A stretch of DNA of 32,000 nt from Candidatus Babelota bacterium (GCA_039809905.1 JBDHVY010000001.1:780001-812000), one strand, 5' to 3'; positions 338 through 24,011 are shown, counted from the first letter of the stretch. Notes: a model not told the origin generated them from the letters alone. Translations and numbers: made by a program.

Positions 338-2911
338 ATGCTCAATTTTATAGCGAAAATCATTAGAAAAACCCGCGAAAGCGATCCAAAAAATGTCTGG
401 AATTGGGGTCCCCATTCGACATGTAATAAAGAATGGGGTTTAATTTTTCTTTTTTTTTGTCACTCATTACAAGGTTTAACAACACTGCATGTAACATCAA
501 GCTCAGATAATAATCCGGGTGGTATGGGGGATATTGGTGATTTGAGATATTGCTTAAATGTAATGAATCAAAATCTCAACTCAATCCCTGATGATTATGC
601 AATTGTTTTTGATTTTCCCATGACTATTCAACTTAATGGAATTTTGCCCATTATTAATAATTCTTCAAATCCGGTCAATATCACTATTGGTAATACTGGA
701 TCAACTCCTACCGTAACTATCGATGGTAATAGCGGCGCTTATAGTGGATTTTTTATACCAATGGGAAATGTAACCATCCAAAATATGATTTTTCAAAATT
801 TGAGTGCAAAAGGTGGTGATGGTGGGGACGGAATTTCCGGTGGTGGTGGTGGAATGGGTGCTGGAGGAGCTATTTATGTACCACAATTGTTTTTAAACGG
901 ATCGTATCCTTCAATTATTTTGATCAATGTATTAATAGACAATTGCTCTGCTATCGGTGGAAATGGAGGAAGTTACCTCGGTCTTTCTTCCACTGGCAAT
1001 GAAGGTGGCGGAGGGGGTGGGGGCTTTGGTGGTAATGGTGGTTCCATTACTACTGTTGGAAGCACTGGAGGTGGCGGTGGAGGTGGCTTTGGAGGGAATG
1101 GTGGAGACGTTACCCTTTCAATTGATAATTCTGGAGGTGGCGGCGGAGGTGGCGGTGGTATTGGATCTCGTGCTGCCATAGGTTCTTTCACTAATCTGGG
1201 CAACGGAGGATCAGATCAAAATTCAGGTGCAGATGGAAATGGATATGGGCTTTTGATTTCCGGTGGTTCAGGCGCAGGAGGAAGCAGCGGAGGTAATAAC
1301 GCAGGCGGTGGCGGTGGAGGCGCTATTGGAGGTGGCGGAGGAGGAAGTCTTGGATCAGATGGAATGCAGCCTCAAGGTAATATACCACCAGGAGGTAGTG
1401 TTGTACCTTCAGGTGGAAATGGAGGAGATGGTGGTGGTGGCGGCGGAGCTGCTATTGTTGTAACAAGTTTTACCAATGGTATAGATGGCCAAGCGGGTAG
1501 TGGTGGTTATGCTGGTGGAGGCGGTGGTGGAGCCGGAACAGGATCTTATGATGCTGCTTATACCGTGCAAGGTGGATCCGGCGGTATGGGCGGAGGAGGC
1601 GGTGGCGGAGGGGTGAATCAATCTGGTTCTACTTCCGCATCAGGTGGTAATTCTCTTGGCGGCGGTGGTGGTGCAGGAGGCGGTCCTTCCGATGGTTCCA
1701 TTGCTCAAGGTGGAGCTGATATAGGAAATCTTGGTGGAGGATCAGGAGGAGCTGGCGCAAATAGTTATGGACCAGGTTTTGGTGGCGGCGGTGGCGGCGG
1801 CGGAAGTGGTTTGGGCGGAGCTATATTTGTGGACAATAATCTGAATTTAACGATACAAGCTTTTTCCGGGATTCCAACCATTTTTAATACAACAAATAAT
1901 CTGACCCAAGCAGGAGTTCATGGAACTGGAGGTCCTGGTGCTGAAGATGGCCTAGATGGATCAGCGCTGGGAAATAGTATTTTTCTACGATCAGGATCTT
2001 CTTTAACATTTATAGCGCAAGATACTAATGATCTTCTCACTTTGGGTGACCACGTTGCATTTACAGATGGTACAATCTTTGGTGCGGGAGGAACGAGTGT
2101 CTTTGTAAGAGGAAATGGAACAGTTGTTTACAATGGAACAACAGATTATTCAGGAACTATTAGCATTAACAATGCGAATTTCAAAGTGAATGGATTAATC
2201 AATGGAGCATCTATTTCAGTTTGTAGAAATATTAGTATTGGTCAACAAAGGGGTACTCTGAGCGGAATGGGAACAGTAACGGGAAATGTTTTTGCAAATT
2301 CTGGAACAATATCGCCTGATGCGGGACAAACACTTACTCTAGCAAGTTTGACTCTAACTCCAGCAGATCAAAATAATAATACTCTTGGAAGTCTTGTGCA
2401 CATAGCGATTGATTTGAATGGTACATCATTAGTTTCTGTTACTGGTTCTGCGTCGTTAGCAGGTACATTAGAGATTGCATTAGATCAAAATGCTCAGCCT
2501 GGAACGTATACCATTCTCAATTCGTCTGGTATTACCGGTGCTTTTGGTGCTGTTACATTTACGGGAGCGGTTCCTAATTATACACTTTCTTACTTGCCTG
2601 TAGGTAATCCTACGTTTGTACAATTTGATTTTTTAGGTTACCCGAATCCATCACTTCACAAAAAAAAGTTTCGTAAAGTTCTTGCAGGTTATCATCAAGC
2701 GTATCTTTTCAAAAAAGTTGTTAAAGCTATCGGAAAAAATGAAAATAAAGCTGAGTTTCGTCTACGCAAAAAAGAAAGAGATTGGCTAAAAGATTATAAA
2801 GAGCTTCATGGTGATAATAAATTTGTAAAAAATCATTTTAAAAAATTAAAGAAGTTCAAGAGTAAAGAAGTGAGACACATAGTTCATCTGATCAAAAAAG
2901 GTAAGAAATAA
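338..2911 (+). CDS. Glycine-rich autotransporter/Pmp-like passenger protein with lysine-rich C-terminal tail and no beta-barrel translocator
   Basis: 857-aa ORF. Two GGAI motifs (GAGGAIYV, GLGGAIFVDNNLNLT) sit in a long (GGx)n region. The passenger-end signature is classical: RGTLSGMGTVTGNVFANSGTISPD...LVSVTGSASLAGTLEIAL...PGTYTILNSSGITGAFG. The last ~85 aa are K-rich (HKKKFRKV...LIKKGKK). SD-like AAGGTAGGA lies 7 nt before ATG 338, but the conserved hairpin motif at 405-438 falls inside this 5' extension, so the alternative start ATG 524 (MGDIGDL...) is possible. A strong terminator follows. Confidence 0.75.
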   Translation: MLNFIAKIIRKTRESDPKNVWNWGPHSTCNKEWGLIFLFFCHSLQGLTTLHVTSSSDNNPGGMGDIGDLRYCLNVMNQNLNSIPDDYAIVFDFPMTIQLNGILPIINNSSNPVNITIGNTGSTPTVTIDGNSGAYSGFFIPMGNVTIQNMIFQNLSAKGGDGGDGISGGGGGMGAGGAIYVPQLFLNGSYPSIILINVLIDNCSAIGGNGGSYLGLSSTGNEGGGGGGGFGGNGGSITTVGSTGGGGGGGFGGNGGDVTLSIDNSGGGGGGGGGIGSRAAIGSFTNLGNGGSDQNSGADGNGYGLLISGGSGAGGSSGGNNAGGGGGGAIGGGGGGSLGSDGMQPQGNIPPGGSVVPSGGNGGDGGGGGGAAIVVTSFTNGIDGQAGSGGYAGGGGGGAGTGSYDAAYTVQGGSGGMGGGGGGGGVNQSGSTSASGGNSLGGGGGAGGGPSDGSIAQGGADIGNLGGGSGGAGANSYGPGFGGGGGGGGSGLGGAIFVDNNLNLTIQAFSGIPTIFNTTNNLTQAGVHGTGGPGAEDGLDGSALGNSIFLRSGSSLTFIAQDTNDLLTLGDHVAFTDGTIFGAGGTSVFVRGNGTVVYNGTTDYSGTISINNANFKVNGLINGASISVCRNISIGQQRGTLSGMGTVTGNVFANSGTISPDAGQTLTLASLTLTPADQNNNTLGSLVHIAIDLNGTSLVSVTGSASLAGTLEIALDQNAQPGTYTILNSSGITGAFGAVTFTGAVPNYTLSYLPVGNPTFVQFDFLGYPNPSLHKKKFRKVLAGYHQAYLFKKVVKAIGKNENKAEFRLRKKERDWLKDYKELHGDNKFVKNHFKKLKKFKSKEVRHIVHLIKKGKK
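405..438 (+). promoter_or_regulatory. Conserved hairpin motif, copy 1 (GGGG-T-CCCCATTC / 13-nt loop / GAATGGGG), followed by a T-rich tract
   Basis: Read directly: GGGG 405-408, T 409, CCCCATTC 410-417, loop gacatgtaataaa 418-430, GAATGGGG 431-438, then TTTAATTTTTCTTTTTTTTT to 458. Same architecture as the copies at 9237, 10649 and 23970. Confidence 0.55.
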
Positions 2912-3074: not shown

Positions 3075-4430
3075 ATGCCGTACGCACGTCATACTATTTT
3101 CGCATCTATATTATTTTTCCAATTTGCCTTGTCAAACAATTCCATTGATTCTAATAATATTCATGATGTGCATTTCGATATAAAATCATTACACGCGGCT
3201 GAAATACCAGAAGAAATTCGTAAAAAAATTATTGATGAAATAGCTCAACAACAAATAAATTCTAACCCATCAAAAAAAACCGAATTTTTCACTAAAAAAG
3301 ATATTGAAGAGATGGACTTTGTCTTTGAATCTTCGCCAGAAGAAGCTCAGTCTATAGTCAATTATCTACACGATTCTAACTATTTCCCGGGTGTTGAAGG
3401 ATATAGATCAGTCTTTTTTGTGGGAGAACCTGGAACCGGAAAATCCATTATGGCTAAAGCAATAGCACATAAGATGATGCAAGCAGGTTGGGAATATAGT
3501 TTTCTATCAAGCACATCTTTTTTAAAAGAATATCGCAATCAAACAGCTATACACCTAAAAAAAGAACTAGAAAAAATTGAGGCTTCTAATAAACCCACTA
3601 TTTTAATTATCGATGAAATACATCGCTTACTTGAAAACACTGAAAGTAAGCATCATGACACAGATGAAACAGCAACAGCGTTGTGGACATTTCTTGACAG
3701 GCAAAAAAACAATAATAACTTCTTTCTTATTGGAACAATGAATCGTGTACATAAATTACCAAAACCAGTTAAAAGTAGAATCATCTCTGATTTTATAGAA
3801 TTCCCATTAATGACTGACCCAATAAGAAAAAACAATATTCTTCGTAGAAACCTATCGACTAAAAATAGTCAAATGAGTATAGAAATAACTGAAAGTTTTT
3901 TAATTAAAGAATTAGAAAAAATAAATCCTTGTTCTGGACGAGATTTAGAAAAATTATCAAAAGAAATCTTGGTGCAAAGTAAATTAAGTAATAAAAATCA
4001 ACCTTATCCAATAACTATCACCCAAAATAATATTTCTCAAGGAATGAATAACTACCTAAGGAAAAAAGCCAGAATAAAATATGATATGGAAGAAGAAACG
4101 GATGAAGAACGACAAAATCGTTATCATAAAGAAAATCTAGAAATGCATGAACGTCATTTTGTTCAACAGCAAAAAATCAATATAGCCATACATGATCATC
4201 AAAATAATGCTAACCAAAATGTTTGTAGTGGTCATCTTAATCTTGAAAGTAGAGCACATATTGATTCTTTAATTTCAGATGAACAAAACCAACTTTACAA
4301 AAGCATGATGGCAAATACTGAAGCAAGAAAAGCCCAAGACGCTGCAGATAAAAAAGCTGCTGAAAAAGAAAAAGCGAAAAGAGATGCAGAAAATTCTTTA
4401 ATAAACCAATTTAAAAAGCTATTTTCATGA
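3075..4430 (+). CDS. AAA+ ATPase with N-terminal signal peptide/anchor and C-terminal charged coiled-coil tail
   Basis: Walker A GEPGTGKS, Walker B ILIIDEIH, sensor-1/SRH region LIGTMNRVHKLPKPVKSR. N-terminus MPYARHTIFASILFFQFALS is signal-like. GGAG lies upstream of the ATG. The stop overlaps the next start (ATGA at 4427-4430). Confidence 0.8.
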   Translation: MPYARHTIFASILFFQFALSNNSIDSNNIHDVHFDIKSLHAAEIPEEIRKKIIDEIAQQQINSNPSKKTEFFTKKDIEEMDFVFESSPEEAQSIVNYLHDSNYFPGVEGYRSVFFVGEPGTGKSIMAKAIAHKMMQAGWEYSFLSSTSFLKEYRNQTAIHLKKELEKIEASNKPTILIIDEIHRLLENTESKHHDTDETATALWTFLDRQKNNNNFFLIGTMNRVHKLPKPVKSRIISDFIEFPLMTDPIRKNNILRRNLSTKNSQMSIEITESFLIKELEKINPCSGRDLEKLSKEILVQSKLSNKNQPYPITITQNNISQGMNNYLRKKARIKYDMEEETDEERQNRYHKENLEMHERHFVQQQKINIAIHDHQNNANQNVCSGHLNLESRAHIDSLISDEQNQLYKSMMANTEARKAQDAADKKAAEKEKAKRDAENSLINQFKKLFS

Positions 4431-5581
4431 ATAAACTTAAATTAATTACTTTAATAATTTTATCCAGTTATCTATTAGTTGCTCAAGAAAAACAACAAAC
4501 TCCAACAGATAAAACTGTAAATTTTAATATCTCTCCATTATATCTGCCGGACCCTGAATATTTTCAACAAAATGTAGCAAAAGAAAACATTCCTCAAGAA
4601 AGTCAAAAAACAAATAAGGCTCTATTGACAAGGCCTGCACGATGGATCGTAGAATCAGCAATGGAAAATGCCCCAAAATTAGTAAAAGGTATCTTTACCT
4701 ATTTACAATTATGTTCACGTTGCGCTATTTCAACTCAAACCATTATCAACATACCGTCTTTTCATCGTTTTATTTTAGTAGGACCGCCTGGATCAGGTAA
4801 AACAACCTTAGCTTACGCTATAGCTGAAATGCTTGGATATACCTACACGTTTATTCCTGCGGCAGATCTTTTAGGAAAATTTAGAAATGAAACTGCTATT
4901 AATTTGCAAAAAATTATACAAAAGTGTATCTCTGATGGAGGAAAAAGAATAATCATTATTGATGAATTACACAAACTATTTGAACATCATAAAATCGAAC
5001 AAACAGATCATTCTGAAACTGCTGCCAGTTTTTGGCTTATTCTCGATCATATAGAAAAACACCTTCCTAATATTATTATCATTGGGACTGCTAATAATGT
5101 TGATAAACTGCCTCCGGAAATTAAAAGTCGCTTTGCAGGAAAGATTATTAACATACAAGCTCCTAATAAAGAACAAAAAATTCAAATTTTTAAAAATAGT
5201 ATTCTACATGATCAATCAATAGAGCTTGATCAATCAATTACTGATGTTTTTATTACAAAAATAATACAGCAAATGGAACAACAATCATTACGTGACATAC
5301 GTTCATTAATTGATTCAGCAAAAATATTTTACTATGCGGAGCAAATTACTTCTCATCCAAAACTGCCTATTATTTTAAGAAAAATACATTTTCAGCAAGC
5401 GCTTAATCAATTGCAGGTAGAATCGCAAGTATTAAAAGAAAACTTCTCAGACCAACTTTGTAAAAAGTTGCAACCTTGGGGTGTTGTTTTTGCAATTGCC
5501 GCCAACATAATCACACTCATAAAAGGATCACACGAATTAGCATGTAAAACTGAGGTTCTGCTAAAAAAATACAGTCACTAA
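4427..5581 (+). CDS. AAA+ ATPase with N-terminal signal peptide and C-terminal hydrophobic segment
   Basis: Walker A GPPGSGKT, Walker B IIIIDELH, IIGTANNVDKLPPEIKSRF. N-terminus MNKLKLITLIILSSYLLVAQE is signal-like. C-terminal WGVVFAIAANIITLI is hydrophobic. Translationally coupled to the preceding AAA+ gene. Confidence 0.8.
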   Translation: MNKLKLITLIILSSYLLVAQEKQQTPTDKTVNFNISPLYLPDPEYFQQNVAKENIPQESQKTNKALLTRPARWIVESAMENAPKLVKGIFTYLQLCSRCAISTQTIINIPSFHRFILVGPPGSGKTTLAYAIAEMLGYTYTFIPAADLLGKFRNETAINLQKIIQKCISDGGKRIIIIDELHKLFEHHKIEQTDHSETAASFWLILDHIEKHLPNIIIIGTANNVDKLPPEIKSRFAGKIINIQAPNKEQKIQIFKNSILHDQSIELDQSITDVFITKIIQQMEQQSLRDIRSLIDSAKIFYYAEQITSHPKLPIILRKIHFQQALNQLQVESQVLKENFSDQLCKKLQPWGVVFAIAANIITLIKGSHELACKTEVLLKKYSH

Positions 5582-5621: not shown

Positions 5622-8600
5622 ATGTTTCATATAAAAAAAAGCATATTAACCACTATTTTCACATTTTTTATTTTTTCTCATATTTTCGCATTAAAGGTTC
5701 AAGATACTGATCCTGAACCTTTCTTCGGCATGGAAAGAAATTCTGAAACAAGTACAAGCACTACTACTGAAACTACGACTACAAACAGTATAAATACATT
5801 TGATACACAACCTTACAATTTTAGTCGCGAAACAAACACAGAAAAAATTGTATCTTATACCATTACTTATGAAGATCGCATTATTCTTGCCCAAGACTAT
5901 TACAACAAAGAAACAGGAGATAGCGAACATGGGAAAATGCAACTTTATCCTGATATATCTCTTATGAATGAAGGAAGACAATCATTTGAAATACCTTCAG
6001 ATCTAAATTCTAATACTCAAAACAATTCTAACACAGATAGCATTAATAATCCTCATCCATCAAACAAACAACAAGATCATGATGATTTTGCTAACAAACT
6101 TAAAGATGATATCCTCGACTCTCGTAGGCAAGAAATAGAAAATAGACAAACATCTCAAACAAGCTCACAACAAAATAATATTCGTATAATACAACGTCAA
6201 AAAGCTTTATATGAATTAGATAAATTGCGCACTTCATCTACTGATCCAAAAGAAATATTTGCACCGCCAAGCGTACAAGCTCATTTCAAACAATTTAAAT
6301 ATGATCTTATAGAAAAATATAGGGATAAAAAAGTATTTTTCTTTTCAAGAAAAAAAACATTTCCAACAGCAGAATCTGAAATCAAATTTGCCAATGCACT
6401 TTCAATACAAGTAGCAGAATATCTTTCAAAAATACGATACGCCAATCTAATTGATGCTAAAGTGGCTTTTGCTGAATTAAAAGAGCTATGGCCTTGGGAA
6501 CGTGATCATACTTTTTTAACAAGTAGTTTTGTCGATGGAACTGGCGAAAATGGCTTTATTGCCCATTTGGGTATTGATATAATGAAAATTGCCGAAAGAG
6601 ATTTAATTTCACGTTTTGATTACATTTCTCAACACGTTAACCCAGAATCATTGAAAAATATTCAAGAGTTTAGAGAGAAATGTATCATTTTTCAACAAAT
6701 AGGAAATCGCAGTGCTCTTTTGCAAGAAGAACTCCGGTTGAGGCATGAGCTTTTCGAAAATGGTAAAAATGATAATTTAATAACAAATATTTGTTATGCG
6801 ATAGCAGAAAAAATATATTCTGACTCAATAACAAATGTATTATACGAGATTGTGCATGCTCAATCTCTTGAAAAAGCCTACAATCAATTACATTACTTAG
6901 AAATGCAAATATTAGATCAAGCGAAACAACATAATATTACTCTTACTGATGAGATCAAAAATTTTATTGTAAAGCAATATGGTTTTGATCTGATTGAAGC
7001 TGCATATAATTGTTATACTTCTCGTCCCGATTACATCAAAACAGTAAATGATCAACCTGTTTTATCCAATAACAATCTATCTTCTATCTTACATAATATT
7101 GAACATAAAGCTCTACCTATAGCTCATGCAGAATTAGTTCATCTTCAAAAACAGATAGTTAAAACTTTTGAGTCTTCTAAGATTGCCGACAAAGCTACAC
7201 GAAAAGGTTTAATGGTAAAAAAATTCGGTATGGATATTCTTGAAGAAGCAGATAACACTTATAAAAATCGCTCAGATCATAAAAAACTTGTTAAATCTTT
7301 CATAGATATTGATGTTAACAAAGCAACCGCAACAATACTTGAAAACAACAACCGTTATGAATCAGTAGCGAATGAGATGAGTAACTTAGCAGAACGTATA
7401 TTTGGTAATGCTCGCCTATGCAACCTCAGCAATCTACCCAAAATAGAATCGCATGTCTATGATTCAATAGAGGCTATGAGAATAGCACAAGATCACCCTA
7501 CGTTTATTTTTAATTTCTCAATGGTTAATCACACTCTTGGTGACATTCAACAATTGGCACATGCTATTCTCAGCGGAACGCATCCAGTATTGCAAAGATC
7601 ATCCGAGCTATTAATGGGAGGTTTGGAAACATTTTTTAAGGGACTTAATCCGGTTACACAAGCTTCTAATATGGGACATCTTGCTTGCGACCTGGGATCT
7701 CTTTTAAAAAAGAGCGGTACTGCTTTGTGGAACGACCCTATTGCCGTAATACATAACGGTATGAACACAACATGCACATTGATTGATCTGATAAGAAACA
7801 CAGCTGATTTTACCTCAGATCTGACTGTTGGCAAACTATATCTATCTCCCGAAGAATATAAGCAACGCACGGATCAATTCTGTGCAATGATTGAACCGTT
7901 GCAAGATGTTACAGCTCAACAATGTTTTAACTTTACATTTCAATTGGCTGCAGATGTTATTGTTTGGAAAGGTCTTGGGACTGCCTATACATTCCTTAAA
8001 GAGATAGATGTATTAGAAAAGCTTGGTGGATCAGCGGCTGTTATAGCACGCACATTCAAGAAAGGTTTTGATACGCATCTTGCCAATAATCCTATTGTGG
8101 TTACTGCTGAGGGGATTACAATAAAAATCTCTGAAGCCATGCACAATATTAATAATAATGGTGGCAACAACATCATAAAAAGCACTAAAGATTTATTTGA
8201 AAGTGCTTATGCTAAAATAGCTATTGATTTAGAAGAAAAAATAAAAAAAATACGTGAAGCTTATATTCTTAAACCAAACCACGACTTTCCAAATTTTGGT
8301 AATAGACACATTAAAATCGCTCTTGAACATATTTTAGGTGTAGAACTAAAATGGAGTGAATTAGGATTTTTATTAGATCTTAGCGGTTTTCATCACGATT
8401 TTATGGGAGCTGTAGAAAAAAGCAAAGCATTTAAGTTTCTTAATAAGGTTATGAATGAAAACGGATGCTATAGTGCTGATATAGTTTTAGAGGGTAAAAC
8501 TTTTCCAAAAACTTTTTTTCCTCAACATTGGTCACAAAGAGAAGTAGCTGATAAAATATACGAAGCATATTACAACTTTATAAATAGTGGCGCACCTCTT

Positions 8601-8717
8601 GAATTAGGAAGAGGGGGGAAGTATGTTGTTAAGGGATACACCAGCGAAGGCATAAAAATAGAGATGCATGTAACGCAAAAAGGCCTTATAACAACTGCTT
8701 ATCCTACTTTTAAATAA
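5622..8717 (+). CDS. Large secreted polymorphic-toxin-like protein with C-terminal EndoU-like RNase domain
   Basis: Signal peptide MFHIKKSILTTIFTFFIFSHIFA; S/T/N/Q-rich linker; helical repeat region. A conserved pre-toxin block is repeated downstream in two orphan copies. The C-terminal ~130 aa carry EndoU-type motifs: EHILGVE (cf. XendoU FEHVFVGE), SGFHHDF (cf. GFHNW), FFPQHWS and a terminal ITTAYP. Confidence 0.7.
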   Translation: MFHIKKSILTTIFTFFIFSHIFALKVQDTDPEPFFGMERNSETSTSTTTETTTTNSINTFDTQPYNFSRETNTEKIVSYTITYEDRIILAQDYYNKETGDSEHGKMQLYPDISLMNEGRQSFEIPSDLNSNTQNNSNTDSINNPHPSNKQQDHDDFANKLKDDILDSRRQEIENRQTSQTSSQQNNIRIIQRQKALYELDKLRTSSTDPKEIFAPPSVQAHFKQFKYDLIEKYRDKKVFFFSRKKTFPTAESEIKFANALSIQVAEYLSKIRYANLIDAKVAFAELKELWPWERDHTFLTSSFVDGTGENGFIAHLGIDIMKIAERDLISRFDYISQHVNPESLKNIQEFREKCIIFQQIGNRSALLQEELRLRHELFENGKNDNLITNICYAIAEKIYSDSITNVLYEIVHAQSLEKAYNQLHYLEMQILDQAKQHNITLTDEIKNFIVKQYGFDLIEAAYNCYTSRPDYIKTVNDQPVLSNNNLSSILHNIEHKALPIAHAELVHLQKQIVKTFESSKIADKATRKGLMVKKFGMDILEEADNTYKNRSDHKKLVKSFIDIDVNKATATILENNNRYESVANEMSNLAERIFGNARLCNLSNLPKIESHVYDSIEAMRIAQDHPTFIFNFSMVNHTLGDIQQLAHAILSGTHPVLQRSSELLMGGLETFFKGLNPVTQASNMGHLACDLGSLLKKSGTALWNDPIAVIHNGMNTTCTLIDLIRNTADFTSDLTVGKLYLSPEEYKQRTDQFCAMIEPLQDVTAQQCFNFTFQLAADVIVWKGLGTAYTFLKEIDVLEKLGGSAAVIARTFKKGFDTHLANNPIVVTAEGITIKISEAMHNINNNGGNNIIKSTKDLFESAYAKIAIDLEEKIKKIREAYILKPNHDFPNFGNRHIKIALEHILGVELKWSELGFLLDLSGFHHDFMGAVEKSKAFKFLNKVMNENGCYSADIVLEGKTFPKTFFPQHWSQREVADKIYEAYYNFINSGAPLELGRGGKYVVKGYTSEGIKIEMHVTQKGLITTAYPTFK

Positions 8718-8729
8718 AGGATTACCAAA

Positions 8730-9107
8730 ATGGATAGTGTAGAATTTTTTCTTGATATGAATCACGGAGATTACTCATCTAAAAATGCATCCAGCATAGA
8801 AATGTGTAATCTTGGGTATTTCTTAGCAAGCGATGTTAAATTTCGACCTTCAATTTTTAAAGAATATGCTTTTAATGATCAACAACAGTTTATGAGTTCC
8901 AATGCTACAACATTAGAAAAACAAAATGGCTACATACTATTAAGAGATCAATACCCAGAAGAAGAAATTCCAACCAACCTAAAAATGTCGCGGGATAAAT
9001 TTATAAAATTACTTGAGGACTGGGAAGAAAAAGTATGTAAACTAATGCCCAAAGAAATTTTGATAAAATATGAAAATGGTGAATTTATTATAGAAACAAA
9101 AGATTAA
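8730..9107 (+). CDS. Putative cognate immunity protein 1
   Basis: 125-aa ORF starting 12 nt after the toxin stop with AGGA upstream and no signal peptide. It is a diverged paralog of the ORF that follows the orphan toxin (shared C-terminus W[EQ]EKVCKL.PKE..IKYEN.EF.IETKD). The call is by position and context only. Confidence 0.6.
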   Translation: MDSVEFFLDMNHGDYSSKNASSIEMCNLGYFLASDVKFRPSIFKEYAFNDQQQFMSSNATTLEKQNGYILLRDQYPEEEIPTNLKMSRDKFIKLLEDWEEKVCKLMPKEILIKYENGEFIIETKD

Positions 9108-9236
9108 TTAGATAATTTTCCAATTTTTATATAAGTTTCAAACTCATCCTTTCTACATTTGATCTAGGATTGCTTTTAAAGCGGTAATTATATGAACGGA
9201 ACAGATACATTGGTTTAATTAAGAATCTTTTAATTT

Positions 9237-9270
9237 GGGGTCCCCAATCGGAATATAATAGAGATTGGGG
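9237..9270 (+). promoter_or_regulatory. Conserved hairpin motif, copy 2 (leader of orphan cassette 1)
   Basis: GGGG 9237-9240, T, CCCCAATC 9242-9249, loop ggaatataataga 9250-9262 (contains TATAAT), GATTGGGG 9263-9270. It sits in a ~65-nt block (9217-9282) nearly identical to 10629-10694. Confidence 0.6.
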
Positions 9271-9330
9271 TTATAAAAACTATATCTATCTCCCGAAGAA
9301 TATAAGCAACGCACGGATCAATTCTGTGCA

Positions 9331-10155
9331 ATGATTGAACCATTGCAAGATGTTACAGCTCAACAATGTTTTAACTTTGCATTTCAATTAGCTGCAGATG
9401 TTATTGTTTGGAAAGGTTTTGGGACTGCCTATACATTCCTTAAAGAAATAGACGTGTTAGAAAAGCTTGGCGGATCAGCGGCTGTTGTAGCACGCACATT
9501 CAAAAAAGGTTTTGATACGCATCTTGCAAATAATCCTGTTGTGGTTACTGCTGAGGGCGTTACAATAAAAATCTCTGAAGCCATGCACAATATTAATAGT
9601 AGTGGTGGTGGTAAAAACATTATTAATAGTTCTAAAGCATTACTGGAAAGTGTTTATGCAAAAATTGTTCTTGAATTGGAACCTGAAATAGTTGCAATCA
9701 AAAAAACATACGATCGAGTAAAAGATGGCTTTGCTCAAATTGCTAACAAAATCACAATGGAATATAAACATATTTTAGGTATGGAATTAGATCTCAGTAA
9801 AAAAGGAAAATTAACTATTGGTGGTTTTCACCATGATTTAAAAAATACAATAGAAAAAACGGATATCTTGAGGTTTACCAATAGAGTTTCTTATGAGCAT
9901 GGTTTTTATAAAGCAACATTATTTGATGGGGCAAATTTTGTTAAAGATGTTACATTTTTCCCAGCTGAATGGTCACGTGATACCGTAATTAGTAAAATAT
10001 ATGAAGCTTATGACAATTTTATAAAAAATGGAGCAACAGGGTACATAGAAAAAGGTGGAAAATACATAGTTGATGGATTAATTAGCGAAGGAATTACTAT
10101 TCGTATGTTTATTACTAAAAACGGTCGTATAGTAACCGCTTACCCTAAGCTTTAA
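9331..10155 (+). CDS. Orphan toxin C-terminal cassette (pre-toxin block plus divergent EndoU-like domain), no signal peptide
   Basis: The first ~90 codons are near-identical in DNA to 7887-8155 of the full-length toxin. The sequence then diverges but keeps the EndoU-type motifs (KHILGME, GGFHHDL, FFPAEWS, IVTAYP). An in-frame TAA lies immediately upstream, at the hairpin/homology junction. Confidence 0.7.
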   Translation: MIEPLQDVTAQQCFNFAFQLAADVIVWKGFGTAYTFLKEIDVLEKLGGSAAVVARTFKKGFDTHLANNPVVVTAEGVTIKISEAMHNINSSGGGKNIINSSKALLESVYAKIVLELEPEIVAIKKTYDRVKDGFAQIANKITMEYKHILGMELDLSKKGKLTIGGFHHDLKNTIEKTDILRFTNRVSYEHGFYKATLFDGANFVKDVTFFPAEWSRDTVISKIYEAYDNFIKNGATGYIEKGGKYIVDGLISEGITIRMFITKNGRIVTAYPKL

Positions 10156-10170
10156 ACTTGGAAAATAAAT

Positions 10171-10551
10171 ATGGAATTTGTAAAATTATTATTAAGCGCA
10201 AATCATAAAAGCTATTCTTATATTGATGCATCTGATATCAAAATGGGGATTCTTGGTTTTTTTTTAACAGATGATGTTAGATGTGGTTCTTCACCATTTA
10301 AAGAATGGGCTTTTAATGATAGTTGGGGCGACGAATGTAGTGGTAATATTACGGGATTAGAAAAAGAAGGTAATTACATATTGCTCACTGATTTGTATTC
10401 TGATGAAGAAACCCCAAGTGTGTTAAAAATGACTCGTAAGCAATATGTACAAGTTATAACTGACTGGCAAGAAAAAGTATGCAAATTAAAACCAAAAGAA
10501 GTAATCATCAAATACGAAAATGAAGAATTCGTTATCGAAACAAAAGATTAG
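10171..10551 (+). CDS. Putative cognate immunity protein 2
   Basis: 126-aa ORF 15 nt after the orphan toxin stop. It is a paralog of 8730-9107, with a variable N-terminal half and a conserved C-terminal half. Confidence 0.6.
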   Translation: MEFVKLLLSANHKSYSYIDASDIKMGILGFFLTDDVRCGSSPFKEWAFNDSWGDECSGNITGLEKEGNYILLTDLYSDEETPSVLKMTRKQYVQVITDWQEKVCKLKPKEVIIKYENEEFVIETKD

Positions 10552-10648
10552 TCTAATCTGCAGGGATCGTTTTTAAGAAAATTTGGTTGCTCTATCGAAT
10601 GATATTATTACGGTAATATCATTGATTGAATTAAGAATCTTTTAATTT

Positions 10649-10682
10649 GGGGTCCCCAATCGGCATATAATAGAGATTGGGG
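10649..10682 (+). promoter_or_regulatory. Conserved hairpin motif, copy 3 (leader of truncated orphan stub)
   Basis: GGGG 10649-10652, T, CCCCAATC 10654-10661, loop ggcatataataga 10662-10674, GATTGGGG 10675-10682. One loop base differs from copy 2. Confidence 0.6.
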
Positions 10683-10742
10683 TTATAAAAACAATATCTA
10701 TCTCCCGAAGAATATAAGCAACGCGCTGATACATTCTGTGCA

Positions 10743-11006
10743 ATGATTGAACCGTTGCAAGATGTTACAGCTCAACAATGTTTTAACTTTACATTTCAAT
10801 TGGCTGCAGATGTTGTTGCTTGGAAAGGTCTTGGGACTGCCTATACATTTCTTAAAGAAATAGATGTATTAGAAAAACGTGGTGGATCAGCGGCTGTTGT
10901 AGCACGTACATTGCGCTATATTGAAGAAATATATAATGAACTGGTTTATCCGAGCCATCAAGAGCGTATTGAGATCGCTCAAAAATATTTAACACAAAGA
11001 ATATAA
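10743..11006 (+). pseudogene. Truncated third orphan cassette (pre-toxin block only, no toxin domain and no immunity gene)
   Basis: 87-aa ORF. The first ~57 aa match the pre-toxin block (MIEPLQDVTAQQCFNFTFQLAADV...). Homology stops near 10912, followed by an unrelated 30-aa tail. The stop lies 2 nt from the stop of the convergent gene. Confidence 0.6.
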
Positions 11007-11008
11007 AT

Positions 11009-11674
11009 TTATGGAGTAAATTGTTCCAAGTTATATATTTCTAATTCTTTTTCAATGCGTTCTACTTTTTTTACCATTGTTTCAAAACCTTTTTCACCAA
11101 ATAGTTTATGTTCAAGATCTTCAAATTTTTCTCCCAATTCTTTAAATTCTGTTTCGCTGATAAGAGAGCGTACTTGAGGGAATAAAATGGTATCTTCACG
11201 TGCTTCATGGGGACGATACATTCTGATAAATTTTTGTAATGCATTTTTTATAGATTTTTTAGTCGATTTATCCAGCTTATTTTTTGATGATAGTTTTTGA
11301 AGTTGAGCAGTAATTTCACGTCCTTTATTATGTTGATTTCTTAATGTTTTGATAAGGCGAACTTCTTTTTTTTGTTTTTCAAAAATAGGAAATAGATAAG
11401 TTTCTTCGAGTTTTTCATGATAATCTTCGATAAATGATTTTATGATATTTGCTGTATTAATAAGAGTATCAATTTGAAAATCAATATTGTTTTCAATTCT
11501 TTTAATGATTTCTTCGTAAATTAATAGAACGCGATTTAATACTCCATGTTCACGCATTAAATCTTCGGTTAAGGGAATTTCAAACTCTTCTTTTTTTTTA
11601 TTCATAGATAAATCCTTATCATCAGCAAACATATACTGATTCGTTATAATCATTAATAATAAAAGATATTTCAT
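11009..11674 (-). CDS. Secreted hemerythrin-like (HHE cation-binding) domain protein
   Basis: H/E-bearing helices LMREHGVLNRVLLIYEE, FIEDYHEKLEETYLFP and MYRPHEAREDTILFP. Signal-like MKYLLLLMIITNQYMFA. I prefer ATG at 11674 (AAAGGAA upstream) to the TTG at 11692 used by the ORF track. Confidence 0.7.
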   Translation of the reverse strand: MKYLLLLMIITNQYMFADDKDLSMNKKKEEFEIPLTEDLMREHGVLNRVLLIYEEIIKRIENNIDFQIDTLINTANIIKSFIEDYHEKLEETYLFPIFEKQKKEVRLIKTLRNQHNKGREITAQLQKLSSKNKLDKSTKKSIKNALQKFIRMYRPHEAREDTILFPQVRSLISETEFKELGEKFEDLEHKLFGEKGFETMVKKVERIEKELEIYNLEQFTP

Positions 11675-11727: not shown

Positions 11728-11777
11728 TATTATGGTTAAAGTTCTATTGTTTTGTTACATTCTTGAAAACAAAAGAT
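11728..11777 (+). repeat. Conserved ~50-bp upstream module, copy A (before the kinase-like gene)
   Basis: TATTATGGTTAAAGTTCTATTGTTTTGTTACATTCTTGAAAACAAAAGAT matches 12854-12902 with about 4 substitutions and 1 indel. A weaker third copy lies at 14040-14107. Confidence 0.6.
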
Positions 11778-12853: not shown

Positions 12854-12902
12854 TATTATGGTTAAAGTTCTGTTGTTTTGCTACATTCTTATAAACAAAG
12901 AT
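12854..12902 (+). repeat. Conserved ~50-bp upstream module, copy B (before WD40-like paralog A)
   Basis: See 11728-11777. It ends 20 nt before ATG 12922. Confidence 0.6.
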
Positions 12903-12921: not shown

Positions 12922-14034
12922 ATGCACTATAATCAAAGCTTTGCCATAACTATTTGTTTTTTTATCGCAATTACAGAATCTCATGGGATGGAAAATAAGA
13001 ATAAATTTGATCTCCATAAGATAGAAGAAATAACGGCAGTCAAATTTCCACGACGTGTAAAATATGTCTCAAACGATACTATTGCTATTAATAGCTTAAG
13101 CCGCTTTAATATTCTAGATCTAGAAACAAAAGCAACTTTATGCATAGATAAAAGAGATCATAATCGGGAATATGTTAGCTTTCCTATGCTTTATAGCAAT
13201 AATAAAATAATTGTTTCTTCTACTAACGAAAAACTAGTTATTTATGATAAACAAAAAAATGTAACAACATGTTTCATACCAATGCAAAATCCCATTTGGG
13301 GATTAGCTGTGCATCCAAGTAGTAATACGGTATTTTTAGTTTCTCCACAAAGGAAGGTGCTCACAAAATATAACTATGTAACAAACATATCCAAAGATGT
13401 TATTATACTGGGAGAAAGTTTTTCATTGATAGATATTCATCCAAAAAAAGACATTATGTGTATAACTCGTTATTCAGGCAATCTTTCTTTTCATACATTA
13501 GACAACTTGAAGGAACCCTTTAAAACTATTACCTTTGCAAGACCTATTATATATCTTTTTTGCCGATATAGTTTGGATGGATCTCGCATAGTAGCTGGGC
13601 ATAACAAAACAGTATATATCATAGACCCAGATAAAAATGCGTATTGTTCTCTTAAGCCTTTCAAAAATGAACGATTTAATACAGTGGCCTTCCATCCAGA
13701 TGGTTTGACCTTAGCAACCTTAGCCACACGTAAAATATCAAAAACAGATATAAAATCTGTTATACATTATTGGGATTTGCAAACAAAAGAATGTATTTAT
13801 ACAACGTCTGCATTAGGAGATAGCTATGGTCATGATCTTTCTTTTTCCCCAAACGGATTAGAAGTTCTTGTTGCGCTTAATGATAAATGCATAAGAACAT
13901 TGGTTCCTTTTGCAGTGAACAAAAAATGTATAGATCTTTTATTCTGGTTAAATCAACTTAAAGAACAAGAAAAAATACCGCAAGATATTGTAAGATATAG
14001 TATTAATGCTTTTCTGAGATACTTGAGTTTCTAA
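12922..14034 (+). CDS. Secreted WD40-like beta-propeller protein, paralog A
   Basis: Signal-like N-terminus. Repeated propeller-blade patterns: LAVHPSSNTVFL, IDIHPKKDIMCI, CRYSLDGSRIVAG, VAFHPDGLTLATLA...IHYWDL, LSFSPNGLEVLVA. Tandem paralog of 14108-15226. Confidence 0.65.
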   Translation: MHYNQSFAITICFFIAITESHGMENKNKFDLHKIEEITAVKFPRRVKYVSNDTIAINSLSRFNILDLETKATLCIDKRDHNREYVSFPMLYSNNKIIVSSTNEKLVIYDKQKNVTTCFIPMQNPIWGLAVHPSSNTVFLVSPQRKVLTKYNYVTNISKDVIILGESFSLIDIHPKKDIMCITRYSGNLSFHTLDNLKEPFKTITFARPIIYLFCRYSLDGSRIVAGHNKTVYIIDPDKNAYCSLKPFKNERFNTVAFHPDGLTLATLATRKISKTDIKSVIHYWDLQTKECIYTTSALGDSYGHDLSFSPNGLEVLVALNDKCIRTLVPFAVNKKCIDLLFWLNQLKEQEKIPQDIVRYSINAFLRYLSF

Positions 14035-14107: not shown

Positions 14108-15226
14108 ATGTCTTACCATAAAAAATTTATCATCAATTTTTGTCTTTTGATTGCAGTAGCACTGTCTTATGGAGCAGAAAATAATAAAAAAAATGATTTT
14201 TATAAGATTCAAGAAATAAAGATAGTTCCTGTTCCACTAGCTATAAAATATATTTCCAATAATACTGTTGCTATTAATAGCGTAAGCTTATTTAGCATTG
14301 TAGATCTAGAAGCAAAAACTATTATGCATATAGACAACAGATATCATAATCGTGAATATCGGAATTTACCTATACTTTATAGCAATGATAAAACAATTTT
14401 TTCGTCTACTAACAAAAAGCTCAGTATTTATGATGAACAAAAAAATGTAAAAACACACTTTATATCAAGAAAAAATAGCATTCAGGGACTAGCTATACAT
14501 CCAAACAGTAATACTGTGTTCTTATGCTGTCCACAAAGAAAAATAATCACAAAATGTAACTATAGAACAAGAATATCCGAAGATGTTATTATACCGGGAG
14601 AAGGTTTCTCATCGATAGATATTCATCCAAAAAAAGGCATTATGTGTATAGCTCGTTCTTCAGGTAATCTTTCTTTTCATCGGTTAAGTAATTTGCAAAA
14701 ATCATTTAAGACTATTACCTTTATAAAACCTATAAACACCATATACTTTTTTTGCCGATATAGTTTAGATGGATCTTGCATAGCAGTTTGGGATAATGAG
14801 ATAGTGCATATCATAGATCCAGATAAAAATACGTATTGTTCTCTCAAGCCTTTCAAAAATGAAATCTTTAATATTATTGCATTCCATCCAGATAGTTTGA
14901 CCTTAGCAACCTTAGCTGCACGGAACCCATTAAAAGCAGATGTAAAAACTGTTATACATTATTGGGATTTGAAAACCAAAGAATGTATTTATACAACGTC
15001 TGAATTAGGAGATGGCTATGCCTGTGATATTTCTTTTTCTCCAGATGGTTTAGAAGTTATTGTTGTGATCAAGAATAAATGCATAAGAACATTGGTTCCT
15101 TTTGCAGTGAACAAAAAATGTATAGATCTTTTATTCTGGTTAAATCAACTTAAAGAACAAGAAAAAATACCGCAAGATATTGTAAGATATAGTATTAATG
15201 CTTTTCTGAGGCATCTACGTTTTTAA
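14108..15226 (+). CDS. Secreted WD40-like beta-propeller protein, paralog B
   Basis: Collinear with paralog A along its whole length. The final 136 nt before the last few codons (15075-15210) are identical to 13883-14018. Confidence 0.65.
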   Translation: MSYHKKFIINFCLLIAVALSYGAENNKKNDFYKIQEIKIVPVPLAIKYISNNTVAINSVSLFSIVDLEAKTIMHIDNRYHNREYRNLPILYSNDKTIFSSTNKKLSIYDEQKNVKTHFISRKNSIQGLAIHPNSNTVFLCCPQRKIITKCNYRTRISEDVIIPGEGFSSIDIHPKKGIMCIARSSGNLSFHRLSNLQKSFKTITFIKPINTIYFFCRYSLDGSCIAVWDNEIVHIIDPDKNTYCSLKPFKNEIFNIIAFHPDSLTLATLAARNPLKADVKTVIHYWDLKTKECIYTTSELGDGYACDISFSPDGLEVIVVIKNKCIRTLVPFAVNKKCIDLLFWLNQLKEQEKIPQDIVRYSINAFLRHLRF

Positions 15227-16386
15227 TATTGATCTGAGAAGTATTTTTTACCTCTAAGTTTCTCAGGCAATAGATCTTCGGTTGTATATTTCTTATAATT
15301 TTTACCGTATCCAAGATCTTTCATCAAAGGCGTTGGTGCATTGCGAATATTTAAAGGAATAGGAAGGTTTCCTAATCGTTTGGCATCAGAGGCAGCGCTC
15401 GTATATGCCTCGTAGGAAGATCTGCTTTTTTTGGCTAAAGATAGGTAGGAAACACCATGAGCTAAGTTAATGGCACATTCGGGGTAACCGATAATTTCAA
15501 CTGATCTGAAAACATCATTTGCAATAGTTAGACCATAGGGATCAGCTAAGCCAATATCTTCTGAGGCAAAAATTACCATACGACGTGCGATAAATTTTGG
15601 ATCTTCACCGGCTTCTACCATTCGTGCTAAATAATATAATGCTGCATCAGGTTGGCTTGCGCGCATTGATTTTATAAAAGCTGAAATAGTATTGTAATGT
15701 TCTTCTGATTTTTTATCATAACGTAAGAATTTATTCTGCAGACTGTTGCGTAGATTTTCAACGGTAATTTTTTTATACAATGCATATGTATTTTCAATCA
15801 TATTCAGTGCTTGGCGTGCATCTCCATTAGCCATTGTAATAATCCAATCCATAGATTCTTGATCTATTTCAATGGCAGTGCGCTGAATAATTTGCTTCAT
15901 CTCATCTGCAGATAATTCTTTTAATACAAATACGCGGCACCGTGAAAGAAGTGCAGGAATAACCTCAAAACTTGGGTTTTCTGTTGTAGCACCAATGAGC
16001 ACTAAATCTCCTGATTCAACGTATGGCAATAAAAAATCTTGTTGTGCTTTATTGAATCGATGAATTTCATCTAAGAATAATACTTTTGTGTGAGTATCGT
16101 CTTTTTTAAGAACAGATTTTATATCTTCTTTTCCCGCTGATACTGCTGAAAATTCATAAAAAGTTGCATCAATAGCTTGGGCATAAATCCGGGCTAAAGA
16201 GGTTTTTCTTACACCGGGAGGTCCCCATAAAATAAAACTAAAAATATGTCTATTTTCAATAGCTATGCGTAAAGGTTTTTCGGGACCGGCAAGATGTTTT
16301 TGACCAATAAATTCATCTAATGAAGCAGGTCTTATTTTTGAAGCAAGAGGTTGATGGGATATGTGATTTTTAGTAGTTTTTACCAT
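15223..16386 (-). CDS. rarA: Replication-associated recombination protein A (RarA/MgsA AAA+ ATPase)
   Basis: [16 protein letters not shown] (P-loop region), Walker [26 protein letters not shown], and the RarA lid [52 protein letters not shown] precedes the ATG at 16386 (the ORF-track start 16422 is likely too long). Confidence 0.9.
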
Positions 16387-16470
16387 AATAAATCTCCTTA
16401 AATTTATAATAACAAAAATCATTAATTTGTCAATTTAATTAATTACAAAAGGGGTTAATTTTCCGTAAGC

Positions 16471-16540
16471 ACAAGAAAAAATACCGCAAGATATTGTAAG
16501 ATATTGTTTGAATGTTCTTTTTACAACTATAACAATCTAA
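16471..16540 (+). pseudogene. Remnant of a third WD40-paralog 3' end
   Basis: 16471-16504 (ACAAGAAAAAATACCGCAAGATATTGTAAGATAT) is identical to 13965-13998 and 15157-15190. In that frame it reads QEKIPQDIVRYCLNVLFTTITI* to a TAA at 16538-16540. No upstream coding body remains. Confidence 0.6.
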
Positions 16541-16610
16541 AATTTTTCTATACTATTGTGTATTCAAGAATTTTGTTAAACTACCTAAATACAATTTTTT
16601 AGGAGTATTT

Positions 16611-16817
16611 ATGGCGATGAATTCAAATCATGTTTTAGGTCTTTTGTGTATGATTGCAGGAGTTGCAATTATTGTTGTTGCAGTTGGTGATTTATTGCTT
16701 CGTATTATTATAGCGCTTATTGCGCTATCTTTGATTAACTATGGATTAAGTCTTCGTGGTTTACCACCATTGCAAAGATTGATCCCCTTAATGATGCATA
16801 GAAATCGTTGGTTTTAA
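16611..16817 (+). CDS. Small two-helix membrane protein
   Basis: 68-aa ORF with AGGAG 7 nt upstream and two hydrophobic stretches. It lies immediately upstream of the MscS-family gene. Confidence 0.55.
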   Translation: MAMNSNHVLGLLCMIAGVAIIVVAVGDLLLRIIIALIALSLINYGLSLRGLPPLQRLIPLMMHRNRWF

Positions 16818-22519: not shown

Positions 22520-23935
22520 ATGAAAAATGTAACAATAATTCTTTTTGGTGCAACGGGAGATTTAAGCAAACGCAAAATAATACCAGCATTATATCGTTTT
22601 GTGGCACACAATAAATTAGAAAATTTTGCTATTGTTGGAGCAGCATTTGATGATGTTGCCGCTGAAGATATGATAAATGGGGCGCAGCCATTCGTTGAAA
22701 ATGGTGATGAAAAAATATGGAATCTGTTGCGTAACAATAGTTTTTATAAAAAAATTAATTTTACTGAACATGCTCACTATCAAAACTTATATACTTTTGT
22801 GCAGGATTGTGAGCGTAGTAGGGGCATGGATGAGCAAGGATTAAATCGGTTATTTTATTTAGCAACAGCGGCATCTTTTTTTTGTCCTATTACCCATAAG
22901 TGTGCAGATGTTGGCTTATTGCAGCGTAAAGATGCCCGAGATAATGGCTGGCATAGAGTTGTGTATGAAAAACCATTTGGATATGATTTAAAATCAGCAC
23001 GAGAAATTAATGAATGTATTAAAAATACTATTAATGAAACACAAGTTTATCGTATTGACCATTATCTTACCAAAGAAGTAGTCAGTAATATTGCCATGAT
23101 TCGTTTTACCAATTGTGTATTGGAACCATTATGGTCAAACAGATATATCGATCAAGTACAAATTGTTTTAAGCGAAAGTGGTGGAGTTGAAGGTCGTGGA
23201 ATGTATTATGATACTGCCGGTGCACTGCGCGATATTGTACAAAATCATATATTAGAGATGCTTGCTCTATTATGCATGGAATCTCCTGAAAAATTAACGG
23301 GTGATTATATCCGTGCACAGCGCGTTAATGTGTTAGAAAAAGTACGTTTTATTGATGGTATTTTAGGGCAGTATGATGGTTATTTATCCGAAAAACACGT
23401 GAGTGAAAATTCACGAACTGATACATATGCATCATTAAAGCTTGCAGTTGATACTCCGCGCTGGTTGGGTGTGCCGTTTTACGTAAAGACGGGTAAGTGT
23501 TTAGATAAAAAAGAAACAATTATTCATATTAAATTCAAGCAAGTTGATTGTTTGCTTATGCGCGGATGTCCTACTGATTCTAATTGGTTAACTCTACAAA
23601 TTTCTCCTGAGGCAATATTTTCATTAACACTGAATGCAAAAGTGCCGGGAACGCCTGATCAGGTGATGCCCGTTGAAATGGAATTTTGTCATAGTTGTAT
23701 TTATGGATTACAAACACCAGAAGCATACGAAGTATTGATTGAAGAAGTGATGCGGGGAGAACAATCGATTTCTGTTAGATTTGATGAAATTGAATACGCA
23801 TGGAAATTGATTGATACAATTATTGCACAAAAATTACCGGTATATCGATACACTCAAGGATCTACTGGGCCACAAGAAGAGAAGCAATTTGTTGCTAAGC
23901 ATGGGATAGCAAAAGTTGCTACAGTGAAGCGATAG
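22520..23935 (+). CDS. zwf: Glucose-6-phosphate 1-dehydrogenase
   Basis: NADP-binding ILFGATGDLSKRKIIPALY, active-site peptide RIDHYLTKE and the later QNHILEMLAL motif. Confidence 0.95.
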   Translation: MKNVTIILFGATGDLSKRKIIPALYRFVAHNKLENFAIVGAAFDDVAAEDMINGAQPFVENGDEKIWNLLRNNSFYKKINFTEHAHYQNLYTFVQDCERSRGMDEQGLNRLFYLATAASFFCPITHKCADVGLLQRKDARDNGWHRVVYEKPFGYDLKSAREINECIKNTINETQVYRIDHYLTKEVVSNIAMIRFTNCVLEPLWSNRYIDQVQIVLSESGGVEGRGMYYDTAGALRDIVQNHILEMLALLCMESPEKLTGDYIRAQRVNVLEKVRFIDGILGQYDGYLSEKHVSENSRTDTYASLKLAVDTPRWLGVPFYVKTGKCLDKKETIIHIKFKQVDCLLMRGCPTDSNWLTLQISPEAIFSLTLNAKVPGTPDQVMPVEMEFCHSCIYGLQTPEAYEVLIEEVMRGEQSISVRFDEIEYAWKLIDTIIAQKLPVYRYTQGSTGPQEEKQFVAKHGIAKVATVKR

Positions 23936-23969
23936 TTTGTAAAAATAGAGATTAAAAAACTTTTTTAAT

Positions 23970-24002
23970 GGGTCCCTAGTCGGAATAAAATAAAGACTGG
24001 GG
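23970..24002 (+). promoter_or_regulatory. Conserved hairpin motif, copy 4 (zwf-gnd intercistronic; 3' arm is the only SD-like run before gnd)
   Basis: GGG 23970-23972, T, CCCTAGTC 23974-23981, loop ggaataaaataaa 23982-23994, GACTGGGG 23995-24002. The gnd ATG is at 24012. Confidence 0.6.
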
Positions 24003-24011
24003 TTAAATGGT

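Follow-up and report, generated by a model that had tools for sequence, protein, structure and literature searches.

Why would three collinear copies of a DNA block stay nearly identical when the sequence after each of them diverges abruptly? This question is raised by a 32,000-nt stretch of the genome of a Candidatus Babelota bacterium (GCA_039809905.1 JBDHVY010000001.1:780001-812000; hereafter the window, with positions counted from its first nucleotide), in which a ~320-bp pre-toxin block lies within a full-length gene, within an orphan open reading frame (ORF) downstream and in a third, truncated copy. A preliminary description of this DNA, made from the sequence alone, had proposed that recombination keeps the block alike and permits C-terminal (CT) toxin and immunity modules to be swapped onto a secreted N-terminal body. 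We find that the block, toxin and immunity segments have different histories, and we consider it quite probable that the window holds a Babeliales (Dependentiae) polymorphic toxin locus in which the block provides the homology for exchange of tail and immunity modules. The proposal is supported by a contrast in synonymous divergence, by mosaic homologues including the related locus L034, and by two variants of one locus in a close relative (L015 and L035). The features on which the argument rests are the following.

5622-8717, plus strand: predicted full-length polymorphic toxin gene, 1031 amino acids (aa), with a signal-peptide-like N-terminus, a mostly helical body, the pre-toxin domain and an EndoU tail
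7833-8155, plus strand: repeat block copy 1, inside the full-length gene (pre-toxin domain aa 738-845, KLYLSPEEY...VTAEG...SEAMHNIN)
8100-8114, plus strand: VTAEG codons, the family-wide boundary between conserved region and variable tail, past which tails diverge
8322-8708, plus strand: predicted EndoU ribonuclease (RNase) domain of the main toxin (PF14436, aa 901-1029, E 6.7e-13)
8730-9107, plus strand: putative immunity gene 1, 125 aa, directly 3' of the main toxin gene, predicted to be cognate to the main tail, with a Shine-Dalgarno (SD)-like AAGGA
9277-9599, plus strand: repeat block copy 2, the 5' part of orphan 1, whose first in-frame ATG is at 9331
9331-10155, plus strand: orphan-1 ORF, 274 aa, with a truncated pre-toxin domain and an intact EndoU tail; frame open from 9277
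10171-10551, plus strand: putative immunity gene 2, 126 aa, predicted to be cognate to orphan 1; product 54% aa identical to immunity protein 1
10689-10912, plus strand: repeat block copy 3 (the stub), which breaks off within the pre-toxin domain, before VTAEG

A repeat finder reported the copies as a single three-member family at 7833-8132, 9277-9576 (95%) and 10689-10988 (77% over 300 nt, a value lowered by the end of this copy near 10912). A match of 95% across 300 nt far exceeds chance. Compared without gaps, copies 1 and 2 (7833-8153 and 9277-9597) differed at 14 of 321 nt, with all 14 mismatches at or downstream of 7898; the three collinear copies first described are thereby borne out, and the earlier count by eye of about 14 mismatches over ~270 nt from ATGATTGAACC onward proved exact. 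Over the 225 positions of the stub (10689-10913), 14 differences separate it from the main copy and 19 from orphan 1. Identical runs in the block shared by the main gene and orphan 1 reached 65, 39, 36, 28, 27 and 23 nt; runs of up to 65 nt suffice in length for homologous pairing. The direct repeats are spaced 1444 bp (copy 1 to copy 2) and 1412 bp (copy 2 to copy 3).

The 5' edge of the shared block was sharp: 30-nt segments lying fully upstream of 7833/9277 were 33-63% identical, a segment straddling the edge was 70% identical, and identity was 100% from 7833/9277 onward. At the 3' edge, maximum chi-square analysis of a protein-guided codon alignment placed one break at 8164/9611 (chi2 119; 0 of 1000 permutations), with 95.2% identity on its left and 62.1% on its right. 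A shoulder of ~75% identity at 8155-8234 was considered as a second step and rejected (non-significant change-point, 308 of 1000). The 3' loss of identity is stepwise, not gradual, in agreement with the abrupt divergence originally claimed; gradual decay, the pattern named in advance as contrary to that claim, was not seen.

Past the break, both C-termini were said to keep the same catalytic motifs, and they do. EndoU_bacteria (PF14436) matched the main and orphan-1 tails at E 6.7e-13 and 6.8e-10 (49.6 and 39.8 bits against a gathering cut-off of 25.3), and each retains the HILG and GFHHD histidine motifs at an overall 47% aa identity; both tails are predicted to be EndoU-type RNase domains. 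The N-terminus of the 1031-aa protein, MFHIKKSILTTIFTFFIFSHIFA, resembles a Sec signal by sequence and is kept in homologues, and the protein would presumably be exported toward a target cell. Its body had no relative in Pfam, NCBIfam or PDB sequence searches. An AlphaFold model was largely helical with a mean predicted local distance difference test (pLDDT) score of 53.7, too poor for fold claims, and a Foldseek search with it returned no meaningful relative. For immunity proteins 1 and 2, too, searches of Pfam, NCBIfam and PDB returned no relative. Their family numbers 53 proteins, of which all except four measure 122-134 aa; several contigs carry two members, and the sole source-given names say Dependentiae. 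Names carried by homologues put the bacterium in Babeliales/Dependentiae. A homologue of immunity gene 1 follows EndoU tails in many related loci, and the tail is presumably toxic and neutralised by the small protein encoded downstream. An NCBI-sourced record also lists the orphan-1 ORF among its called proteins (P0138).

Different histories are evident from synonymous (dS) and nonsynonymous (dN) divergence, which we estimated by the Nei-Gojobori method for the main gene and orphan 1, separately for linker, toxin and immunity segments as the preliminary description had suggested.

Block: dS 0.139, dN 0.020, third-position identity 0.92
Toxin tail: dS 1.08, dN 0.43, third-position identity 0.49 (over 8226-8714)
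Immunity gene: dS 1.38, dN 0.38

The dS of the block is thus 8-10 times below that of the toxin tail and immunity gene, and third-position identity is 0.58 over the short stretch 8154-8225. Constraint on the protein alone therefore cannot account for the likeness of the block, which must have coalesced far more recently than the adjoining modules, and this contrast points to recombination.

Comparison with related proteins placed the boundary of exchange at the same motif. In sixteen homologues the body is 41-77% identical to that of the main protein and the pre-toxin domain ends in NPIxVT(A/T)EG, and the variable tails fell into four non-aligning groups when scored at >=50% alignment coverage: EndoU, a 127-aa class, a 153-aa class and one singleton, with the EndoU tails themselves split into several divergent subtypes. 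Within the motif, T, E and G were invariant across the 16-sequence alignment A1, V was nearly so, and the third residue was A or T. P0003 carries a tail unrelated to those of P0005 and P0007 despite bodies 84-88% and pre-toxin domains 86-93% identical, and the tail of P0005 is 90-91% identical to those of P0008 and P0009, with bodies at 56-64% and pre-toxin domains at 44-48%. By these measures the homologues are mosaic exactly at the ...VTAEG junction. The downstream gene tracks the tail class: a member of the ~125-aa family follows EndoU tails, a 269-270-aa product follows the 127-aa class and a 147-aa product follows the 153-aa class. The pre-toxin domain alone recovered 71 representative clusters among 1.84 billion proteins, and the tail domains identified among 60 of these representatives were EndoU (18), PT-HINT (3), Ntox21 (2) and Ntox35 (2), all names from the polymorphic-toxin catalogue.

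Two sets of related loci bear directly on exchange between positions and between strains. The main gene of L034 and an orphan of 414 aa have ~700 nt in common at ~99.7% identity, which then drops to 55-70%. At the aa level, the tail of this orphan matches the window's main tail at 84%, and the immunity gene after it is closer to immunity 1 (75%) than to immunity 2 (52%), while the L034 main tail is closer to the window's orphan-1 tail (64%); therefore one toxin type is found in the expressed slot of one genome and in the orphan slot of the other. L015 and L035 are near-identical metagenome contigs of a close relative from different samples, in which the spacer, hairpin and block are 97-100% identical and identity is ~55% just past VTAEG. 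Since their upstream spacer corresponds to window positions 10560-10640, one slot holds two EndoU subtypes in two strains and the deleted stub in the window. The comparison of the locus among strains, proposed at the outset, thus found different tails in one slot. Elsewhere, the 5' limit of orphan homology falls at aa 559, 606 or 683 of the body or at aa ~23 of the pre-toxin domain, and orphans, stubs and free-standing immunity genes occur in many relatives (P0074 and P0094 among the examples, the latter being the block fused to half of an immunity gene). Judged by these sequence comparisons, lineages have exchanged modules, and modules have moved between orphan and main positions; recombination probably still occurs in this lineage. 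The data fit ongoing conversion of the block or repeated import of CT and immunity modules at this place, either of which would amount to toxin swapping.

The related loci showed further features of their own. In L003, a second, different polymorphic toxin follows the toxin locus (14227-16122; 631 aa, with the CdiA_C domain PF18451 and without the VTAEG pre-toxin block), beside a gene marked CdiI-like by precomputed annotation (16386-16718); Babeliales therefore carry more than one polymorphic toxin family. In the complete Babeliales chromosome OY968764.1 (L008), ~980 bp at 10247-11223 interrupt the pre-toxin domain of the main gene between domain aa 84 and aa 82, which may be an insertion. 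The toxin locus is disrupted in the 1.35-Mb genome of L005, where the second AAA ATPase gene, immediately 5' of the toxin gene, contains a DDE transposase gene in the opposite orientation (8525-9556).

Based on this evidence, we propose that the locus would encode a body, a conserved pre-toxin domain ending in ...NPIxVTAEG and a variable EndoU tail, which would be neutralised by the small protein encoded directly downstream. Each orphan cassette would comprise a hairpin and ~107 codons from the end of the pre-toxin domain, followed by a tail with its immunity gene; orphan 1 is intact. RecA-type recombination between copies 1 and 2 would delete 1444 bp, taking out the main tail along with immunity gene 1 and the hairpin ahead of orphan 1, and would fuse the body to the orphan-1 tail followed by immunity gene 2. 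The block could also be where incoming DNA bearing another tail crosses over.

Several points weigh against this proposal. The mismatch-repair gene mutL (18598-20547) is intact and would dampen recombination between repeats diverged by 4.4%, recA was not among the window genes, and a deletion-type swap would lose immunity gene 1, which would be costly among clonemates. No secretion apparatus was identified, and the body model is poor. The recombinant that the preliminary description had anticipated, a main body joined to the orphan-1 CT, was not found: no full-length protein carried an orphan-1-type tail in a search that scored word-sharing candidates only, and the best relatives of this CT were short ORFs at no more than 74% identity. 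The stub, moreover, is a decaying copy, so cassettes also decay. Its 3' portion is as follows.

10913-11006, plus strand: tail of the stub, the last ~30 codons of a Peptidase_M48 gene; a deletion scar

By tblastn, this tail is 66% identical over 29 aa to the end of the L029 ORF 4711-5727, which matches Peptidase_M48, and an M48 gene adjoins the 3' side of the immunity gene in relatives such as the contig of P0017. A single deletion would then have removed the tail and immunity gene of the second orphan, together with most of the M48 peptidase gene next to it. Decay of the orphans into pseudogenes, which had been named as evidence against toxin swapping, is seen for the stub and not for the intact orphan 1.

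The orphan homology was also described as beginning at an in-frame TAA that abuts a hairpin, and the TAA codons indeed sit between the hairpin and the first shared codon. The hairpin occurs in four copies in the window.

9221-9272, plus strand: hairpin before orphan 1, stem 9242-9249 with 9263-9270, TATAAT in the loop
9274-9276, plus strand: in-frame TAA before the first shared codon of orphan 1
10633-10684, plus strand: hairpin before the stub, stem 10654-10661 with 10675-10682; TAA at 10686-10688
389-440, plus strand: hairpin copy inside the 5' part of a glycine-rich ORF (338-2911)
23953-24004, plus strand: hairpin copy between a glucose-6-phosphate dehydrogenase (G6PD)-like ORF (22520-23935) and ORF 24012-24932, ending 7 nt before ATG 24012

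The element spans 52-75 nt, with further copies in L015 (51-121) and, from direct reading of the sequence, in L035 (~100-160), and consists of an 8-bp GC-rich stem, a 13-nt loop with TATAAT, TGTAAT or TAAAAT, and a GGGGTCCCC palindrome. An AT-rich hexamer lies 18 nt upstream of the TATAAT-like hexamer. The stem pairs in every copy, one pair being seen as A-T, T-A and G-C, and statistical support from these compensatory changes is weak (27 of 500 shuffles, four sequences). The copy at 389-440 has the appearance of an in-frame insert of 19 codons within the signal peptide that the glycine-rich ORF encodes, reminiscent of the palindromic elements known from Rickettsia; ORF 24012-24932 resembles 6-phosphogluconate dehydrogenase by eye. 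No Rfam match was found in the window at gathering thresholds, a covariance-model search of ~400 kb of related Babeliales loci yielded no convincing copy except in the close relative L015, and a consensus promoter and terminator scan of 8600-11100 gave no excess over shuffled sequence and did not flag the hairpin. The hairpin is a dispersed, lineage-specific element and not a dedicated toxin leader. Orphans in other genomes lack it, so it is dispensable for the cassette system, and it may be a promoter or operator or a selfish palindromic repeat.

Could the same layout have arisen without exchange through the block? The alternative that comes closest, possible if rather unlikely in our view, is that the orphans are kept mainly as independently transcribed protection against the toxins of neighbours, with the hairpin as promoter or leader and the block as a scar left by earlier displacements and no longer in use. 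The same element does precede each orphan and ATG 24012 with its TATAAT-like and AT-rich hexamers, immunity gene 1 has its own SD-like AAGGA and immunity gene 2 a weakly SD-like TGGAAA, toxin-free orphan immunity genes are common in relatives (L007, L009, L012, L024, L027 and L034), and orphan-sized ORFs beginning MIEPLQ recur in other assemblies. Yet a scar would have drifted away from the resident main gene, and here 95-100% identity is retained in two independent genomes whose block proteins are ~25% apart, the consensus promoter scan did not report the hairpin, and no good SD lies upstream of ATG 9331. This account is in any case compatible with exchange through the block and does not exclude it. 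A single tandem duplication followed by purifying selection on the block and diversifying selection on toxin and immunity genes would make recombination unnecessary, and it agrees with three collinear, tandem copies and with a dN/dS of 0.14 in the block against higher values of 0.40 in the tail and 0.27 in the immunity gene. We find it hardly credible: it predicts equal synonymous divergence, contrary to the dS and third-position contrasts given above, the break is one sharp change-point, the shared block of L034 is ~99.7% identical and about twice as long, and tails are shuffled among bodies across genomes.

The hairpin might instead mark the sites of a site-specific recombinase that moves toxin and immunity cassettes as in an integron, since a conserved stem with compensatory changes stands before each orphan and the homology begins exactly at its 3' end. 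Against this very improbable scheme, the hairpin also occurs inside the glycine-rich ORF and before ATG 24012, which makes it a dispersed repeat; no integrase- or recombinase-like ORF of >=90 aa was seen by eye in 11-32 kb (most of these ORFs were not family-scanned) or among the scanned upstream proteins; and the orphans of relatives lack the hairpin and have the varied 5' ends described above. That the array is a collapsed or mis-joined repeat in a metagenome-assembled genome has a practically negligible probability. Assemblies do fail at such repeats, the contig of P0009 stops immediately 3' of its toxin gene and many related contigs are 1-2 kb, but the copies here are told apart by 14-19 differences and by unique flanks, they lie on a contig of 1.23 Mb, and the same kind of arrangement appears in independent assemblies (L015, L035, L016/L019, L017/L018 and L034). 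Exchange of toxin and immunity modules through the shared block thus remains the reading that we favor.

A lead on delivery lies immediately upstream of the toxin gene.

3075-4430, plus strand: AAA+ ATPase 1, with an N-terminal hydrophobic segment (Pfam AAA PF00004, E 1.6e-23)
4427-5581, plus strand: AAA+ ATPase 2, with an N-terminal hydrophobic segment (Pfam AAA, E 6e-25), overlapping ATPase 1 by 4 nt

The gene order AAA/AAA/toxin recurs in 12 of the 13 related loci with upstream sequence, including the distant member L036, and the pair may be a dedicated partner of the toxin. Assignment of the second ATPase as the type VII component EccA was rejected, as its NCBIfam score of 38.6 bits against a cut-off of 466.65 reflects generic AAA similarity. 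A speculative and improbable extension is that the toxin, pre-toxin domain and two signal-anchored AAA+ ATPases form an unrecognised Dependentiae polymorphic-toxin delivery system, in which the ATPases would drive export or unfolding, the hairpin would be a regulated leader for each orphan, and intracellular parasites of protists would fight each other or manipulate their host via swappable RNases.

Dependentiae live as obligate parasites of protists, and their genomes measure about 1-1.5 Mb (PMC4776705). Turnover of several toxin and immunity cassettes implies antagonism between related bacteria or use of toxins against the host, neither of which is expected in so reduced a lineage. A full-text literature search returned no paper linking polymorphic toxins with Dependentiae. 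The principle is textbook, as known from CdiA, Rhs and MafB orphans; the protein family, its AAA+ partners, the immunity family, their occurrence in this phylum and the hairpin element appear to be undescribed. The family offers a helical carrier, a VTAEG pre-toxin domain, an EndoU immunity family and a conserved AAA+ pair as parts, and the VTAEG junction is a practical marker with which to mine more tails. The value of the finding is confirmatory, as a clean natural example, with strain-level evidence, of the orphan-cassette recombination model.

Other genes in the window are also of note. The glycine-rich ORF at 338-2911 encodes an 857-aa protein with repeated GGAI/GGAG-type motifs and a local G+C of 53% against ~33% for the genome; it had no Pfam or NCBIfam match and resembles chlamydial polymorphic membrane proteins by eye. 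Tandem paralogues at 12922-14034 and 14108-15226 are WD40/beta-propeller-like with signal peptides and are 85% identical in parts. Their 3' ends share 53 nt at 100% identity, an isolated third copy of which (89%) lies at 16467-16519, and a 46-nt repeat occurs upstream at 11728-11773 and 12854-12899 (91%), which suggests local gene conversion or a decayed third paralogue. On the minus strand, 25626-27662 and 27849-29852 form a tandem pair of paralogues that encode 678 and 667 aa, respectively, with signal peptides, ~75% DNA identity over long stretches and no Pfam match; they conserve a GHG...SCYAGGY pattern that resembles a His/Cys protease dyad by eye.

How does the locus compare with known toxin systems? 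Polymorphic toxins are defined by a conserved N-terminal region on different C-terminal toxins, an immediately downstream immunity gene that varies with the tail, and downstream orphan modules in which one region is homologous to the full-length gene (PMC4436062, after Zhang et al. 2012), and each of these traits is found here. Two further traits, a trafficking or secretion signal at the N-terminus and a toxic tail that the cognate immunity protein neutralises, are predicted for this locus. The closest parallel is MafB/MafI of pathogenic Neisseria (PMC4287609, PMC4436062), in which a signal-peptide toxin with a conserved N-terminal region has its immunity gene directly downstream. Both have a short motif before the variable tail (DWVKN in class 3 MafB, VTAEG here), downstream CT and immunity cassettes of which some have a start codon and some do not, and an EndoU RNase among their tails; in both, by comparative evidence, the cassette tail of one strain is the main tail of another (PMC4287609, PMC4436062). 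RNase activity has been demonstrated for a MafB toxin with the EndoU domain PF14436 (PMC4287609), and the two tails here match the same family above cut-off and keep its histidine motifs. In contrast to MafB, the protein has no Pfam match to the MafB N-terminal domain (DUF1020), EndoU being its only match at E up to 0.1; two AAA+ ATPase genes stand upstream in place of a mafA-like gene; and the host is an obligate parasite of protists from another phylum, with a dispersed hairpin before each orphan.

Orphan CdiA-CT/CdiI pairs also lie downstream of the main gene and keep a conserved piece up to a motif (VENN there, VTAEG here), after which similarity drops sharply (PMC4436062). Unlike loci for contact-dependent growth inhibition, this one has by Pfam no TPS domain, FHA repeats, VENN motif or CdiB/TpsB gene, and its protein is helical by model. 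At 1031 aa, it is a third or less of the size of CdiA. For a Salmonella Rhs orphan, recombination between direct repeats of the main gene and orphan places the orphan tail on the delivery body, according to the account of a 2014 study given in PMC4436062, and direct repeats between main gene and orphan are likewise the mechanism proposed here. In that account recombination was demonstrated, whereas here it is deduced from comparisons, and the window holds no RHS/YD repeats, no PxxxxDPxGL motif and no type VI secretion genes. LXG/type VII toxins differ in that no LXG match was found and a signal-peptide-like N-terminus is present instead. The locus thus falls outside the membership of each of these families, yet it appears to work like MafB, CdiA and Rhs loci with orphan modules, and both the definition of an orphan module with its homologous region and the comparisons of MafB-CT cassettes match the layout here (PMC4436062, PMC4287609).

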